From the NCBI RefSeq assembly GCF_044324785.1, contig NZ_CP172127.1: 64,000 nt of DNA; one strand, 5' to 3'. The notes below the pieces were generated by a model that was given only the letters and a program-made list of their open reading frames with translations, was not told the DNA's origin and searched no databases. Shown one piece after another: positions 9,915 to 17,944 of this stretch (position 1 is the first letter of the stretch; each line of letters opens with the position of its first letter). A program made the translations under genes and the position numbers. Origin of the DNA: Escherichia coli (GTDB lineage Bacteria; Pseudomonadota; Gammaproteobacteria; Enterobacterales; Enterobacteriaceae).

Positions 9915-11288
9915 TTACTGCGCGGCTTCCGCTTTCTTCGCCAGACCATCCAGCAGTTTCTGATGGATGCCACCAAAACCGCCGTTGCTCATCACCAGAA
10001 TATGGTCGCCAGGCTGAGCGGTTTTCACCACCATATCTGCCAGCGTATCCACATCGCCACTCCAGTGTGCAGGCTGAACGCAGGCTTCTGCCACTTCTGC
10101 CACCTGCCACGGAATATGCGCCGGTTGCAGCAGGAAGACTTCATCGGCACGACCTAATGAAGGTGCCAGATCGTCTTTGCAGATCCCCATTTTCATGGTA
10201 TTCGAGCGCGGTTCCAGCACGGCAATAATGCGCGCCGTACCGCCAACTTTGCCACGCAGCGCCGCCAGCGTTGCCAGAATCGCAGTCGGGTGATGGGCGA
10301 AATCGTCATATACCGTCACGCCATTGGCTTCACCACGCAACTCCAGACGGCGACGAGCATTAATAAACGAACCCAGCGCGTTAGCGGCATCTGCCGGCGC
10401 TACGCCAACATGGCGGGCCGCCGCAATCGCCATCAGGCCATTATGCATATTATGTTCGCCTACCAGCGACCATTTCACTTCGCCCACTTTTTCGCCATCC
10501 AGCAAGACTTCCCATTCGGAAGCATCGGTGGTCAGCTTTTTCGCCTGCCAGTGACCCTGCTCGCCCACCAGCTCCTGCTCGCTCCAGCAGCCCATCGCCA
10601 TGGTCTGTTTCAGGTTGATGTCGTTTTCCGGCCAGATAATACGGCCCTGCCCCGGAACGATACGCACCAGATGGTGGAACTGTTTCTGGATCGCTTTCAG
10701 GTCGTCAAAGATATCGGCGTGATCGAACTCAAGGTTGTTGAGGATCAGCGTACGCGGGCAGTAATGGACAAATTTAGAGCGTTTGTCGAAAAAGGCGCAG
10801 TCGTACTCATCCGCTTCGATAACAAAGAAGTCGCTTTCGCCCAGACGCGCCGAAACCTCAAAGTTCCCCGGCACACCGCCGATCACAAATCCCGGTTTGT
10901 AACCGCACTGTTCCAGAATCCAGGTCGCCATTCCCGCGGTGGTAGTTTTGCCGTGTGTACCGGCAACGGCCAGCACCCAGCGGTCGCGCAGCACAAAATC
11001 GTGCAGCCACTGTGGACCTGACATATAAGGGATGTTTTTTTCCAGTACCGCTTCCACACACGGATTTCCACGGGTCATGGCGTTGCCAATAATCACCAGA
11101 TCCGGCTGCGGGTCGAGCTGGCTGGCATCGTAACCCTGAATCAGTTCAATGCCTTGCTTCTCAAGTAAGGTGCTCATCGGCGGATACACATTGGCGTCCG
11201 AACCCGTTACTTCATGGCCTAACTGGCGCGCCAGCATCGCCAGACCGCCCATAAACGTGCCACAAATTCCTAAAATATGAATGCGCAT
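9915..11288 (-). CDS. mpl: UDP-N-acetylmuramate:L-alanyl-gamma-D-glutamyl-meso-diaminopimelate ligase (murein peptide ligase)
   Basis: 457 aa Mur-ligase family (GTHGKTTT P-loop). Confidence 0.9.
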   Translation of the reverse strand: MRIHILGICGTFMGGLAMLARQLGHEVTGSDANVYPPMSTLLEKQGIELIQGYDASQLDPQPDLVIIGNAMTRGNPCVEAVLEKNIPYMSGPQWLHDFVLRDRWVLAVAGTHGKTTTAGMATWILEQCGYKPGFVIGGVPGNFEVSARLGESDFFVIEADEYDCAFFDKRSKFVHYCPRTLILNNLEFDHADIFDDLKAIQKQFHHLVRIVPGQGRIIWPENDINLKQTMAMGCWSEQELVGEQGHWQAKKLTTDASEWEVLLDGEKVGEVKWSLVGEHNMHNGLMAIAAARHVGVAPADAANALGSFINARRRLELRGEANGVTVYDDFAHHPTAILATLAALRGKVGGTARIIAVLEPRSNTMKMGICKDDLAPSLGRADEVFLLQPAHIPWQVAEVAEACVQPAHWSGDVDTLADMVVKTAQPGDHILVMSNGGFGGIHQKLLDGLAKKAEAAQ

Positions 11289-11463
11289 ACGTCACTATCC
11301 TTTTTTAATCTGGCGCTCATTTTACGCATATGTCGGGCAAGTGAGAAACGCATTTCAGGATAATCCGTAATTTGCTGGCGCGATTCACCTGAGCGCAACA
11401 TTGAGATTATTTGTTAAGATTGTTGCGGTCGCTTTACTCCATAAACATTGCAGGGAAAGTTTT

Positions 11464-12462
11464 ATGAAAACGTTAGGTGAATTTATTGTCGAAAAGCAGC
11501 ACGAGTTTTCTCATGCTACCGGTGAGCTCACTGCTTTGCTGTCGGCAATAAAACTGGGCGCCAAGATTATCCATCGCGATATCAACAAAGCAGGACTGGT
11601 TGATATCCTGGGTGCCAGCGGTGCTGAGAACGTGCAGGGCGAGGTTCAGCAGAAACTCGACTTGTTCGCTAATGAAAAACTGAAAGCCGCACTGAAAGCA
11701 CGCGATATCGTTGCGGGCATTGCCTCTGAAGAAGAAGATGAGATTGTCGTCTTTGAAGGCTGTGAACACGCAAAATACGTGGTGCTGATGGACCCCCTGG
11801 ATGGCTCGTCCAACATCGATGTTAACGTCTCTGTCGGTACCATTTTCTCCATCTACCGCCGCGTTACGCCTGTCGGCACGCCGGTAACGGAAGAAGATTT
11901 CCTCCAGCCTGGTAACAAACAGGTTGCGGCAGGTTACGTGGTATACGGCTCCTCTACCATGCTGGTTTACACCACCGGATGCGGTGTTCACGCCTTTACT
12001 TACGATCCTTCGCTCGGCGTTTTCTGCCTGTGCCAGGAACGGATGCGCTTCCCGGAGAAAGGCAAAACCTACTCCATCAACGAAGGAAACTACATTAAGT
12101 TTCCGAACGGGGTGAAGAAGTACATTAAATTCTGCCAGGAAGAAGATAAGTCCACCAACCGCCCTTATACCTCACGTTATATCGGTTCACTGGTCGCGGA
12201 TTTCCACCGTAACCTGCTGAAAGGCGGTATTTATCTCTACCCAAGCACCGCCAGCCACCCGGACGGTAAACTGCGTTTACTGTATGAGTGCAACCCGATG
12301 GCATTCCTGGCGGAACAAGCGGGCGGTAAAGCGAGCGATGGCAAAGAGCGTATTCTGGATATCATCCCGGAAACCCTGCACCAGCGCCGTTCGTTCTTTG
12401 TCGGCAACGACCATATGGTTGAAGATGTCGAACGCTTTATCCGTGAGTTCCCGGACGCGTAA
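11464..12462 (+). CDS. fbp: Fructose-1,6-bisphosphatase class I
   Basis: 332 aa from internal ATG ([15 protein letters not shown]...); upstream extension of ORF track rejected. Confidence 0.92.
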
Positions 12463-12470
12463 TCTCCTGC

Positions 12471-12497
12471 GCCTCTCCACACGGAGAGGCGTTTTTA
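12471..12497. terminator. Hairpin plus T-run between convergent fbp and yjfF (bidirectional terminator)
   Basis: GCCTCTCC-ACAC-GGAGAGGC followed by TTTTTAT. Confidence 0.5.
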
Positions 12498-13490
12498 TCG
12501 CTGCGCAATGTTGACTCTTGTCACAGGCGAACTCTGACGATTCTCCCACAGCACCGTTAATCCACGCTGTAATGCTATAAAAATAAACAACAAAATACCG
12601 ATGGCGATTTTCGTCCACCATGAGCTCAGCGTGCCATCAAAGTTTATGTAAGTCTGAATCAGTCCCTGAATCGCCACGCCAAAAAGCGTCCCTAATACCG
12701 TTCCAACGCCACCGCTCAAAAGCGTACCGCCAATCACCACTGAGGCGATAGCGTCCAGTTCCACACCTACGCCCGCCAGCGCATATCCGGCCTGGGTATA
12801 AATCGAGAAGACAATCCCCGCCAGCGTTGCCAGTCCGGTGGAAAGCATATAAATGCGAATAGTGGTGCTGCGAGTGGAAATCCCCATCAGGTTTGCCGAC
12901 GTTGCGTTGCCGCCAATGGCGTATACCTGATTACCAAAACGGGTACGATGCGCGAGGAATATGCCGATAACCACCACCGCCAGCATCAGCAGTCCCATCG
13001 CACTTAAGCGACCGCCGCCAGGGATTTTCCACGCAAGGCTTGAGAGCGTGTCATAAACAGGATGGTTTATCGGGATCGACTCTTCCGAAACGAGATAGCT
13101 GACGCCACGCAAAAAGAACATTCCTGCCAAAGTAATGATAAACGCCGGGATCTTCAGGGCGTCGATCAAAAGCCCCATAAATGCGCCGAAGGCACAGCCC
13201 ATCACCAGCACCAGTGGAAACGCCAGCAGCGGCGAGAGGCCGAAATCGCCAATCACTTTTGCCAGAAACACGCCGGTAAAGGCGATCACCGAACCGACGG
13301 AGAGATCGATCCCACCGGAGAGGATCACAAAGGTCATGCCAACGGCAATGATCCCAAGAAAAGCATTATCGGTCAGGATATTGCAGATCACTCTTGTGGA
13401 AGCAAAACCGGGAAACTGCGTCAGACAGTAGAGATAACCCAGCACAAAGACGCCGATGGTGATCATAAGCGGCAGGTTACGTTTTATCAC
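12495..13490 (-). CDS. yjfF: ABC transporter permease (galactofuranose/sugar family)
   Basis: 331 aa polytopic permease; GTG start; overlaps ytfT 3' end by 14 nt. Confidence 0.85.
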   Translation of the reverse strand: MIKRNLPLMITIGVFVLGYLYCLTQFPGFASTRVICNILTDNAFLGIIAVGMTFVILSGGIDLSVGSVIAFTGVFLAKVIGDFGLSPLLAFPLVLVMGCAFGAFMGLLIDALKIPAFIITLAGMFFLRGVSYLVSEESIPINHPVYDTLSSLAWKIPGGGRLSAMGLLMLAVVVIGIFLAHRTRFGNQVYAIGGNATSANLMGISTRSTTIRIYMLSTGLATLAGIVFSIYTQAGYALAGVGVELDAIASVVIGGTLLSGGVGTVLGTLFGVAIQGLIQTYINFDGTLSSWWTKIAIGILLFIFIALQRGLTVLWENRQSSPVTRVNIAQR

Positions 13491-14502
13491 GGCTACGCAC
13501 TCCTTTAATCAGACTGATAAAGCGTTGCGACTGAACAATCAGCACGCAAAGCACCACTACCGCTTTCACCACCTGGTTCATCTCTGGCGGAAAGCCCGAA
13601 AGCAAAATTCCGGTGTTCATCCCCTGAATAATCAGCGCCCCTACCACTGAGAGCAGCAGGTTAAAACGCCCGCCCATCAGCGATCCGCCGCCAATCACCA
13701 CCGCAAGAATGGCGTCCAGCTCCAGCCATAATCCGGCGTTGTTGGCATCGGCACCGCGAATATCCGCCGCCACGATAATGCCCGCAATCGCCGCACACAG
13801 CCCGCTCAACACATAAGTGAGCATGACGATGATTCGTGTGTTGACTCCGGCATTTTTGGCCGCCCGAATGTTGATACCAACGGCTTCGATAAACATCCCC
13901 AGTGCCGTTTTGCGGGTCAACAGCCAGAAGAGGAGAAGCGTCAGTACCGCAATAATGACTGGTGTTGGCAAGAACACCAGCGATCCGCTGCCAAACCATG
14001 AAAGATCCGGCGAGTTAAACGTGACGATCTGTCCGGAGGTGATCAGTTGCGCCACGCCGCGCCCGGCGACCATCAGGATCAGGGTGGCAACAAACGGCTG
14101 AATTTTGAGGATCGCTACCAGTATGCCGTTCCACAATCCCGCCAGGATGCCAGTGCCCAGGGCACTTAACAAAACAATTGGCAGGCTGAATCCCGCGACC
14201 GTCATCGCAGCCGTTGTGGCTCCGGCGATAGCCATCACCGCCCCCACGGAGAGATCAATCCCACCTGTTGCGATCACCAGCGTCATTCCGATAGCCAACA
14301 GCGCAACGGGGGCCGCACGGTTAAGAATGTCGATAGGGCTACCGAACAAACGCCCATCCTGAAGCACCACCTGCCAGAAATGCGGGGCCACCAGACTGTC
14401 GACCAGCAGCACCAGCAATAGCGCTACCAGCTGCGGCATCCCCGTCGGCCAGCAAAAGCGCCTTTTTGGCGTAGTGGTGTCCGGAAGAGATTGAGGCATC
14501 AC
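13477..14502 (-). CDS. ytfT: ABC transporter permease
   Basis: Permease; start placed at GTG (V8 of ORF-track protein) 6 nt after a perfect AAGGAG RBS, giving 341 aa; ORF-track TTG start at 14523 is less likely. Confidence 0.8.
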   Translation of the reverse strand: MMPQSLPDTTTPKRRFCWPTGMPQLVALLLVLLVDSLVAPHFWQVVLQDGRLFGSPIDILNRAAPVALLAIGMTLVIATGGIDLSVGAVMAIAGATTAAMTVAGFSLPIVLLSALGTGILAGLWNGILVAILKIQPFVATLILMVAGRGVAQLITSGQIVTFNSPDLSWFGSGSLVFLPTPVIIAVLTLLLFWLLTRKTALGMFIEAVGINIRAAKNAGVNTRIIVMLTYVLSGLCAAIAGIIVAADIRGADANNAGLWLELDAILAVVIGGGSLMGGRFNLLLSVVGALIIQGMNTGILLSGFPPEMNQVVKAVVVLCVLIVQSQRFISLIKGVRSRDKT

Positions 14503-14512
14503 ACTGTTCTCC

Positions 14513-16015
14513 TTACGCCGCAATGGCGTTCATGATCGCCGGAACGGAAAGCTCTGCCAGCGGGATCTCCGCCACCTGTTTGCGATCGCGCATGATAATC
14601 ACCCGGTCGGCATAGCCCACCAGCTCTTCCAGTTCAGAGGAGATCACCAGCAGTGCCAGACCGTCAGCGCATAGCGTTTCAATCAGGCGGATGATCTCGG
14701 CATGCGCACCAACATCAATGCCGCGGGTTGGCTCATCAAGGATCAAAAATTGCGGTCGGGTCAGTAGCCAACGTGAAAGCAACACTTTTTGCTGATTGCC
14801 GCCGGAGAGAAATTCAATCGGTTGTTCAGTTGAAGGTGTGCGAATGCCAAGCTGGCGGATAAAGCGTTCGGCAATCTCTTGCTGTTCTTTGCGGGAAATC
14901 GGTCGTAACCAGCCGCGCTGGGCCTGGAGAGCGAGGATGATATTTTCCCGCACCGAGGCGGCGGCGATGATGCCATCGGTTTTCCTGTCTTCCGGGCAGA
15001 AGCCGATACCCAGTACCGAAGCCTGATGTGGCGATCGCAGGGTTTGCTGTTTGCCTTTGATCAACGCCGTGCCGCTGTCAGCAGGTTTGATACCGAAGAT
15101 CACTTCGGCGGTTTCGGTACGTCCTGATCCCAGCAAGCCTGCCAAGCCAACGATCTCGCCGGGGCGTACTTCGAGATCAAACGGTGCGATCGTTCCTTTT
15201 TTACCGTAATTTTTGAACGCGGCAACGGGTTTGTCGCTCAGCAATGTTCGTCCGGCACGCTGTAGCGCGTGGGTGTCCAGCTCGCGCCCCAGCATCATTT
15301 TTACCAGTTCGATCTGCGGTAGCTCGCGGGTTTCCCGACAGCCTACGAAACTGCCGTTGCGTAAGACGGTGATCCGATCGCTGACCTGATAGACCTGATC
15401 GAGAAAGTGAGTGACAAAGATCAGGCTGACGCCGCGATCGCGCAACTGGCGCATCAAGCCAAACAGCAACTCTACTTCCTGAGTGTCGAGGCTGGCGGTG
15501 GGTTCATCGAGGATCAGCACTTTGGCGGAGAGATCGATGGCCCGACAAATGGCGACGATTTGCTGCATCGCCACCGATAAACGGTTGAGCGGTTCCCGCA
15601 CGTCGAGGGAGAAACCATACGATGCCATCAGTTCGGTGGCGCGCTTTTCCATCTCTTTGCGGCGTAGAAGGCCGAAACGTTTGGGTTCGCGACCTATGAA
15701 TAGATTATCAGCGACCGACATATTGGGTAGCAGGTTGACTTCCTGATAGACGGTGCCGATGCCGAGTTGTTGTGCGTGGGCGGTATTTTTCGGTGAGATA
15801 GTCTGGCCTTCCAGCCAGATGGTGCCGCGATCGGCGTGGTAGACACCGGTTAATGCTTTGATTAGCGTTGATTTTCCCGCCCCGTTTTCACCGAGCAGCG
15901 CCATGATTTCACCACGGCGCAGGCTGAAATCAACGTTGTCTAACGCTTTGACACCGGGGAAAAATTTACTTAATCCTTCGGTGCGGAGGATTTCCTGGTG
16001 TTGGTTAGTATTCAT
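14513..16015 (-). CDS. ytfR: ABC transporter ATP-binding protein with two ABC domains
   Basis: 500 aa from internal ATG (MNTNQHQEIL...); two Walker A motifs (GENGAGKST, GLLGSGRT). Confidence 0.85.
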   Translation of the reverse strand: MNTNQHQEILRTEGLSKFFPGVKALDNVDFSLRRGEIMALLGENGAGKSTLIKALTGVYHADRGTIWLEGQTISPKNTAHAQQLGIGTVYQEVNLLPNMSVADNLFIGREPKRFGLLRRKEMEKRATELMASYGFSLDVREPLNRLSVAMQQIVAICRAIDLSAKVLILDEPTASLDTQEVELLFGLMRQLRDRGVSLIFVTHFLDQVYQVSDRITVLRNGSFVGCRETRELPQIELVKMMLGRELDTHALQRAGRTLLSDKPVAAFKNYGKKGTIAPFDLEVRPGEIVGLAGLLGSGRTETAEVIFGIKPADSGTALIKGKQQTLRSPHQASVLGIGFCPEDRKTDGIIAAASVRENIILALQAQRGWLRPISRKEQQEIAERFIRQLGIRTPSTEQPIEFLSGGNQQKVLLSRWLLTRPQFLILDEPTRGIDVGAHAEIIRLIETLCADGLALLVISSELEELVGYADRVIIMRDRKQVAEIPLAELSVPAIMNAIAA

Positions 16016-16037
16016 AGTTTCCCCCGTTGTAAAGCGT

Positions 16038-16145
16038 GCGCCAGATAAGACACAACAGCGTCGCATCAGGCATCTCGCACAACCGCCGGATGCGGCGTGA
16101 ATGCCTTATCCGGCGGCCCACAAGTCGGCATCAGGCATTGATGCC
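16038..16145. repeat. REP/BIME cluster between ytfR and ytfQ
   Basis: Multiple GCCGGATGCGGCG.../CGCATCAGGC palindromic units. Confidence 0.55.
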
Positions 16146-16147
16146 CC

Positions 16148-17104
16148 TCAATACCCCATGTTTTTCTTCTTCTCTAACTCTTCTTTTGCGGTATCAGGCA
16201 GGTAAAGGGTGGATTTGGTCAGGGTCAGCTTTTCAGGCATGGTGCCGTCTTTTTTGTATTTCTCCAGCGCGTCAAAAGCGGGTCCCGCCATGTTCGGCGT
16301 CAGTTCAACGCTGGCGTTCGCTTCGCCATCAATCATCGCTTTGTAGATGTCCGGCACGCCGTCGATAGAGCCTGTCAGGATATCTTTGCCCGGTTTCAGG
16401 CCCGCTTCTTTAATTGCCTGAATTGCACCAATCACCATGTCATCGTTATGGGCGTAAACCATGCAGATGTTTTTGCCGTTGTTTTCCGCTTTGATAAAGC
16501 TCTCCATGACTTCTTTGCCTTTACTGCGGGTGAAGTCACCTGACTGCGAGCGGATAATTTTGATATTTGGCGCATTCTTTATGGCTTCGGCAAAGCCTTT
16601 CTTACGGTCAATGGCGACGCTGGCCCCAACGGTGCCCTGCAGCTCCACCACGTTGCATGGTTTGCCATTCACTTCTTTTACCAGCCAGTCACCAATCAAC
16701 TTGCCTTCGAGGATGTTGTCGGCAGTGACGGTGGTCATATAGAGAGACTTGTCTTTCACATCGATGGAACGATCGAGCAAGAAGACCGGGATTTCGGCAT
16801 CTTTCGCCTCTTTTAATACCGGCTCCCAACCGGTCGCTACCACTGGAGCGATAAAGATCGCATCCACCCCTTGCGCGACGAAGGAACGTACCGCTTTAAT
16901 CTGGTTTTCCTGCTTTTGCTGACCATCGGCAATTTTCAACGTAATTCCGCGCTTTTCGGCTTCACTTTTCGCCACATTGGTTTCTGCGGCGCGCCAGCCG
17001 GATTCCGATCCGACCTGCGAAAATCCAACGGTTAATGGAGCGGCCAACGCCATAGACGACATGGCTGCCGAGACTGCAGAGACTACAAGTAAGCGTTTCC
17101 ACAT
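16148..17104 (-). CDS. ytfQ: Periplasmic sugar-binding protein (galactofuranose-binding) of the ytfQRT-yjfF ABC system
   Basis: 318 aa with signal peptide, periplasmic-binding-protein fold. Confidence 0.88.
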   Translation of the reverse strand: MWKRLLVVSAVSAAMSSMALAAPLTVGFSQVGSESGWRAAETNVAKSEAEKRGITLKIADGQQKQENQIKAVRSFVAQGVDAIFIAPVVATGWEPVLKEAKDAEIPVFLLDRSIDVKDKSLYMTTVTADNILEGKLIGDWLVKEVNGKPCNVVELQGTVGASVAIDRKKGFAEAIKNAPNIKIIRSQSGDFTRSKGKEVMESFIKAENNGKNICMVYAHNDDMVIGAIQAIKEAGLKPGKDILTGSIDGVPDIYKAMIDGEANASVELTPNMAGPAFDALEKYKKDGTMPEKLTLTKSTLYLPDTAKEELEKKKNMGY

Positions 17105-17413
17105 AGGGTTGTCCTCGTCGGGGTAATTATTATTGGTGAAAAGATGTTCGCGAAAAAACTATAGACAATTCGTTATGTAACGGATTGCGTTACATCACAC
17201 TTCAAAAAAGTAAATAAAACGTTAATCACAAGTTTGTAATCGCTTTCATCTCACTATGAAAAATGCGGCTACGGTTATGGATTTTCCTGCTCTTTAAACC
17301 ACCTTAAAACTGGCTAAAAAGGAAAATGAAGAAGAAAACAAGCGAAGACATTCGGCGCGAGTTGGCTATAATACTCGGCACTTGTTTGCCACATATTTTT
17401 AAAGGAAACAGAC

Positions 17414-17944
17414 ATGAGCTTACTCAACGTCCCTGCGGGTAAAGATCTGCCGGAAGACATCTACGTTGTTATTGAGATCCCGGCTAACGCAGATCCGATC
17501 AAATACGAAATCGACAAAGAGAGCGGCGCACTGTTCGTTGACCGCTTCATGTCCACCGCGATGTTCTATCCGTGCAACTACGGTTACATCAACCACACCC
17601 TGTCTCTGGACGGTGACCCGGTTGACGTACTGGTCCCGACTCCGTACCCGCTGCAGCCGGGTTCTGTGATCCGTTGCCGTCCTGTTGGCGTTCTGAAAAT
17701 GACCGATGAAGCCGGTGAAGATGCGAAACTGGTTGCGGTTCCGCACAGCAAGCTGAGCAAAGAATACGATCACATTAAAGACGTTAACGATCTGCCTGAA
17801 CTGCTGAAAGCACAGATCGCTCACTTCTTCGAGCACTACAAAGACCTCGAAAAAGGCAAGTGGGTGAAAGTTGAAGGCTGGGAAAACGCAGAAGCCGCTA
17901 AAGCTGAAATCGTTGCCTCCTTCGAGCGCGCAAAGAATAAATAA
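17414..17944 (+). CDS. ppa: Inorganic pyrophosphatase
   Basis: 176 aa, [44 protein letters not shown] signature. Confidence 0.93.

Follow-up and report, generated by a model that had tools for sequence, protein, structure and literature searches.

The ytfQRT-yjfF operon and its last three genes

Translational coupling between neighboring genes is known from junctions such as trpE-trpD, trpB-trpA, and galT-galK, and from many operons that encode ATP-binding cassette (ABC) transporters. At junctions of this type a stop codon overlaps or abuts the next start and the Shine-Dalgarno sequence lies inside the upstream gene; the commonest forms are overlaps of 4 nucleotides (ATGA) and of 1 nucleotide (TAATG). 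We examined the junctions and start codons of ytfR, ytfT, and yjfF, the last three genes of the ytfQRT-yjfF operon, in a stretch of Escherichia coli DNA of 64,000 nucleotides that we call the window (NCBI RefSeq assembly GCF_044324785.1, contig NZ_CP172127.1). This operon encodes a galactofuranose/arabinofuranose importer that was recently renamed GafABCD and is controlled by GalR/GalS and AraC; the assignment of galactofuranose or arabinofuranose as the substrate that is bound and transported comes from literature on YtfQ of strain K-12 (PMC10191376). The start of ytfT also has a history of its own. In Nakahigashi et al. 2016, Table S3 includes ytfT with the K-12 genes that had their start altered between the 2006 and 2014 records, from an ATG at 4450597 (U00096.2) to a GTG at 4452571 (U00096.3), a shift of 3 nucleotides (PMC4909307). 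Thus, the described K-12 genes that were re-annotated by one codon include ytfT itself, that is, the same locus in another strain (PMC4909307).

Our reading of the window is that it carries the gafABCD operon, that yjfF and most likely ytfT start with GUG, that a TTG opening the ytfT reading frame is unused, and that the genes are presumably coupled at their junctions. We give this account as a whole a probability of roughly 0.8. The positions, conservation, annotation history, and family membership that enter into it are direct observations.

The list of open reading frames (ORFs) of the window contains three adjoining genes at 12495-16015 on the minus strand, the strand to which all features below belong unless noted. 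The first, ytfR (14513-16015), encodes a fused double ABC ATPase of 500 amino acids, with an ATG at 16015-16013 and a TAA at 14515-14513. It is followed by ytfT (13477-14502, TAA at 13479-13477), which encodes a permease subunit of 341 amino acids when counted from GTG, and by yjfF (12495-13490), which encodes a second permease subunit of 331 amino acids and runs from a GTG at 13490-13488 to its end at 12497-12495. All three proteins scored above the cutoffs of their NCBIfam equivalog families: YtfR with 863.2 bits against NF041861 (cutoff 850), YtfT with 631.7 bits against NF041862 (cutoff 535), and YjfF with 568.6 bits against NF008630 (cutoff 363). Two stretches of YtfR match the Pfam domain ABC_tran, and both YtfT and YjfF contain BPD_transp_2 (PF02653), the sole Pfam family in YtfT. 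The family assignments are secure, and the region is the end of the ytfQRT-yjfF (gafABCD) operon for a CUT2-type sugar ABC importer.

The K-12 operon (b4227, b4485, b4230, b4231) resembles that of the window in its genes, their order, the flanks, and the junction sequences. The TAAGGAGAACAGTGTGATG junction and the 14-nucleotide overlap of ytfT and yjfF are identical in K-12 and in the window, and the proteins are 98.4-99.1 % identical. At the DNA level the three genes are only ~96 % identical, so that K-12 carries a different haplotype, and neither junction differs.

Start codons of ytfT and yjfF

For comparison we scanned one genome per species, which gave 80 loci from Enterobacterales, Aeromonas, Vibrio, and one Microvirga. 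The three genes were placed in each locus by tblastn and the junctions were then read. Counts for the start of ytfT are from 46 non-redundant junctions that share the architecture stop-GGAG-N6-start, and counts for the ytfT-yjfF junction are from 78 species.

In the window the ytfR stop codon is fused to the Shine-Dalgarno sequence of ytfT as TAAGGAG (14509-14515), with a predicted duplex energy of -9.2 kcal/mol; the AAGGAG at 14514-14509 shares its first two bases with the end of the ytfR TAA. A 6-nucleotide spacer, AACAGT, leads to a GTG (14500-14502) that lies 10 nucleotides past the ytfR stop and would begin a protein of 341 amino acids. The next codon is an ATG (14497-14499) with a 9-nucleotide spacer, which is either codon 2 of ytfT or an alternative start for a protein of 340 amino acids, and which is the start called by the NCBI Prokaryotic Genome Annotation Pipeline (PGAP). 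The open frame itself begins with a TTG (14521-14523) in the 3' end of ytfR, 8 nucleotides ahead of where the stop of that gene begins. This arrangement of TTG, AAGGAG, GTG, and ATG had been described correctly in a first-pass annotation made from the sequence. AAGGAG occurs 19 times in the window compared with an expected 21 +/- 4.5, showing no enrichment. The signal is therefore in the placement and conservation of the motif, not in its count.

The GGAG core directly after the stop was invariant in all 46 comparable junctions, and the six spacer bases that follow it were near random with 1.5-1.95 bits of entropy each. At the position of GTG 14502 we found GTG in 36 junctions, ATG in 10, and no other codon. 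A GTG that was merely part of the spacer would vary like the six bases before it; since a start codon was kept in 46/46, this position behaves as a selected start codon. The codon after it was ATG in 39 of the 46 junctions and a non-start codon in the other seven, one of which (locus L032) has GTG then AGA. In these seven species only the first codon can start ytfT. Distant genera with a single ATG have it at the GTG position, not one codon later. Because of the start codon kept at this position throughout, GTG 14502 is most likely the start of ytfT, and on these comparative grounds we favor it over ATG 14499 by roughly 2:1.

Annotations are divided between the two codons. The curated K-12 RefSeq record has ytfT starting from GTG with 341 amino acids, and one PGAP-annotated E. 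coli genome has it starting from ATG with 340. In a collection of 15 billion proteins, the 340-amino-acid form of the K-12 sequence occurs on at least 1000 contigs and the 341-amino-acid form on 106; the ytfT sequence of the window itself occurs there only in the 340-amino-acid form, on 338 contigs. The suspicion in the first-pass annotation that an automated call could misplace a start is thus borne out by the PGAP ATG and the curated K-12 GTG, with the difference limited to one codon. The text of EcoGene 3.0 does not state the reason for the change of the ytfT start. Manual inspection of tetracycline-inhibited ribosome profiling scored ytfT as "3. 2014", which is the GTG start (PMC4909307 Table S3).

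The strongest alternative is that ytfT starts solely at AUG 14499, giving the PGAP version of 340 amino acids, and that GTG is simply the last three bases of a 9-nucleotide spacer. Several points speak for this start and count against GTG. AUG is intrinsically a stronger start than GUG, and a 9-nucleotide spacer is also functional. The ATG was the annotated K-12 start in 2006 as well as the PGAP call, it is the start of the form found on the larger number of contigs, and it is kept in 35 of the 36 species that have GTG before it. Among the first twelve residues in those 36 species, none is better conserved than Met2, with Pro3, Ser5, and Leu6 kept in 28-32, a pattern that would also fit AUG as the start. 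In addition, the authors of the profiling study caution that one-codon differences beside an ATG are hard to resolve (PMC4909307), which makes the profiling call for GTG a weak one. Against an exclusive AUG start are the invariance of the GTG position where a spacer should vary, the seven species that lack a second-position ATG, the placement of the single ATG in the distant genera, and the weak profiling call. We consider it unlikely that AUG 14499 is the sole start.

Retention of Met2 differs between species with GTG first (35/36) and species with ATG first (4/10; Fisher p = 1.4e-4, not corrected for phylogeny). Because of this contrast, the conserved GUG-AUG pair may be a tandem start of ytfT, with both codons used from one Shine-Dalgarno sequence on re-initiation after ytfR termination. 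We put this forward tentatively. If it is true, there would be two proteoforms, MMPQS... from GUG and PQS... from AUG after removal of Met, and selection would maintain the AUG as a back-up specifically in genes that open with the weaker GUG. The ambiguity that remains for ytfT is real, one codon wide (GTG or ATG), and already documented.

By contrast with ytfT, the start of yjfF is unambiguous, so that the start-codon ambiguity claimed in the first-pass annotation applies to only one of the two genes. A stop codon lies 21 nucleotides upstream in the yjfF frame, and no start codon occurs between it and GTG 13490. This start overlaps the end of ytfT by 14 nucleotides (GTGATAAAACGTAA, 13477-13490), just as the first-pass annotation had it. 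The non-ATG starts that it describes across the three genes belong to two of them, ytfT and yjfF; ytfR starts with ATG. A perfect AAGGAG belonging to yjfF (13500-13505), which the first-pass annotation did not mention, is located inside the Lys-Gly-Val codons of ytfT with a 9-nucleotide spacer and a predicted duplex energy of -8.2 kcal/mol; orthologues carry GGAG, GGA, or GGGG at this place. Codon 1 of yjfF is ATG in 72 of the 78 species and GTG in 6 (Escherichia, one Citrobacter, and three Pantoea/Erwinia), and the K-12 and PGAP annotations agree on the GTG. Residues 1-8 of YjfF (MIKRNLPL) are conserved. The NLPL at residues 5-8 is past the overlap and is conserved as protein with synonymous DNA changes; translation therefore begins upstream of it. 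No entry for yjfF was found in the start-mapping supplementary tables that we searched, and those of TRAINSPOTTER 2026 and Giess 2017 list neither ytfT nor yjfF.

The base that varies in the yjfF start (G or A) also occupies the middle of YtfT codon 338, at which Escherichia has Arg (CGT) and the others have His (CAT). A single substitution thus altered the yjfF start codon and a YtfT residue at once.

Annotation artefacts are often met among long overlaps, and the 14-nucleotide overlap would be one if yjfF started at the internal codon 9 (13466), which is an ATG and is downstream of the ytfT stop. This start was rejected as highly improbable: no Shine-Dalgarno sequence precedes it (+0.6 kcal/mol), just 51 of the 78 species have ATG at codon 9 whereas codon 1 is a start codon in all of them, and residues 1-8 are conserved as protein.

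The weakest candidate is TTG 14523 as the start of a 348-amino-acid YtfT that overlaps ytfR by 11 nucleotides. No start codon comes earlier in the open frame, and TTG is present here in 33 of the 46 species, though at a position that doubles as an Ile-Ala codon of the conserved ytfR C-terminus. As far as comparison can show, this start was ruled out: it has no Shine-Dalgarno sequence (predicted duplex of -2.1 kcal/mol compared with -9.2 for UAAGGAG), is missing in 13/46 species, is followed by an in-frame stop before the GTG position in 16/46, is not the annotated start in the two records examined (K-12 and PGAP), and gives a protein found on no contig in the 15-billion-protein collection. Both comparisons that bear on the first-pass preference for the GTG/ATG pair over the TTG came out in its favor: with these stops and losses, orthologues have no N-terminal extension beyond the GTG, and the published K-12 mapping has its signal at the GTG and not at the TTG (PMC4909307 Table S3).

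Junction architecture and a proposed model for coupling

At both junctions the genes share a strand, the downstream start overlaps or closely follows the upstream gene, and the upstream gene carries the Shine-Dalgarno sequence within it or fused to its stop. We surveyed the ytfR-ytfT junction in 83 loci: the window, the 80 species loci, and two more E. coli records. Across them the likely start of ytfT ranged from an 8-nucleotide overlap to about 14 nucleotides past the ytfR stop. In most Enterobacteriaceae 10 nucleotides separate the ytfR stop from the ytfT start, and the stop is fused to the Shine-Dalgarno sequence. Pantoea and Erwinia have ATGCTTGA, an 8-nucleotide overlap, Serratia has ATGA, a 4-nucleotide overlap, and Aeromonas has TGAtATG. 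The ytfT-yjfF junction was also tight, with an overlap of 1-14 nucleotides in 77 of the 78 species: 14 nucleotides in 41, 8 in 11, 4 in 12, and 1 in 13, the remaining species having a 3-nucleotide gap. The 4-nucleotide and 1-nucleotide forms are found in Pantoea, Serratia, Yersinia, and Rahnella.

Conserved tight junctions of this kind are the classical architecture of termination-reinitiation coupling. The likeness to known coupled operons consists of a short gap or overlap, a Shine-Dalgarno sequence in or fused to the upstream gene end, and spacing that is kept across genera. The 14-nucleotide overlap of the window is longer than the commonest coupled forms. Translational coupling from ytfR to ytfT to yjfF, as the first-pass annotation suggested, is a reasonable inference that fits these junctions.

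In the model that we propose, ytfR starts at ATG 16015 and translation of ytfT would initiate at GUG 14502, for which the UAAGGAG that begins with the ytfR stop would be the Shine-Dalgarno sequence. AUG 14499 would then be Met2 of YtfT and possibly a secondary start, and TTG 14523 would merely open the frame. The start of yjfF is GUG 13490, served by the AAGGAG within the ytfT coding sequence. Ribosomes ending ytfR, and later those ending ytfT, would terminate on or beside the ribosome-binding site of the next gene. Output of the three cytoplasmic and membrane subunits would in this way be linked at a ratio of 1:1:1, which fits the needs of a transporter with a fused ATPase and a heterodimeric permease. 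The gene of the binding protein, ytfQ, is set apart by a 132-nucleotide spacer with a repetitive extragenic palindromic (REP) element. It is the coupling and the choice of GUG over AUG that we infer in this model.

Two negative results bear on coupling. Local RNA folds from -40 to +40 at all three starts were no more stable than those of shuffled sequence, with z of -0.8 to 0 at the junctions. They therefore give no sign of a structure that makes downstream initiation depend on upstream translation, nor do they point the other way, and RNA structure sequestering the starts was rejected as the basis of coupling. We also found no experiments in the literature on coupling in the ytfQRT-yjfF operon.

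Surrounding sequence and annotation of the operon

Upstream of the three genes are ytfQ (17104-16148) and ppa, and downstream are fbp and mpl. The order ytfQ-ytfR-ytfT-yjfF and these neighbors are the same in the annotated K-12 and NRZ14408 records. The K-12 and PGAP annotations share ATG 16015 as the start of ytfR. It is preceded by a Shine-Dalgarno-like GGGGGA (16020-16025) that ends 4-5 nucleotides before the ATG and has a predicted duplex with the 3' end of 16S ribosomal RNA of -8.6 kcal/mol; orthologues carry GGGGGA or GGAGG at this place. A longer ytfR ORF of 517 amino acids from ATG 16066 crosses the REP element. It was excluded because orthologues have, ahead of their conserved ATG, in-frame stops whose positions vary.

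The REP-type palindromic element (16039-16115) contains nested inverted repeats, matches Rfam RF02564 (naRNA4) with 63.6 bits (gathering score 59.5), and fills most of the 132 nucleotides between ytfQ and ytfR. It was the only match in an Rfam scan of 12300-17500. A REP-bearing spacer after the binding-protein gene is the usual arrangement in ABC-transporter operons when the binding protein is made in excess.

At the other end of the region, a strong terminator-like hairpin (12469-12492) lies on the plus strand downstream of fbp. Its stem has 10 pairs, of which 7 are G-C, and a TTTTT run comes after it. The hairpin is in the 32 nucleotides that separate fbp from the convergent yjfF, and its T-run overlaps the yjfF stop and last codons. 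No T-run accompanies the hairpin when it is read on the strand of yjfF.

The ytfR-ytfT-yjfF segment (12495-16015) is unusually divergent within E. coli. Its best match among 5426 complete E. coli genomes is 97.9 % identical, and in 2749 of those genomes the segment is only 90-95 % identical. The flanks (9915-12462 and 16148-17944) have a best match of 99.6 %, and nearly all genomes are at 95-99 %. Within E. coli the haplotypes of the three genes differ by 4-10 %, as much as from E. albertii, and the proteins are at least 96.5 % identical. This pattern suggests old, recombining haplotypes under strong purifying selection.

Two observations concern the database records of YtfT. In NF041862 and in RefSeq records such as NZ_CP158426.1 the protein is named "galactofuranose ABC transporter, ATP-binding protein". 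YtfT has no ABC_tran domain and contains the BPD_transp_2 permease domain only, and this product name appears to be a naming error that has passed into the RefSeq E. coli records and into the members of the protein cluster of YtfT. YjfF proteins of 329-331 amino acids also turn up in that cluster, which was formed at 90 % identity and has 12769 members. YtfT and YjfF are paralogues that are only distantly related, and this listing is probably a quirk of the clustering or of the member listing, not biology.

The operon, its function, the non-ATG starts, and the one-codon re-annotation of ytfT are already known, and in this respect the finding is an ordinary one. A change of one residue in the cytoplasmic N-terminal tail of YtfT is unlikely to alter the function of the transporter. 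What it means for this family is a matter of annotation: the ATG start of ytfT in RefSeq/PGAP conflicts with the curated K-12 record and with the comparative evidence, and both the start call and the product name could be fixed in NCBIfam NF041862. The locus may also serve as a teaching example, in which alignment of junctions across species excludes a TTG that opens an ORF and confirms GTG starts without experiment.

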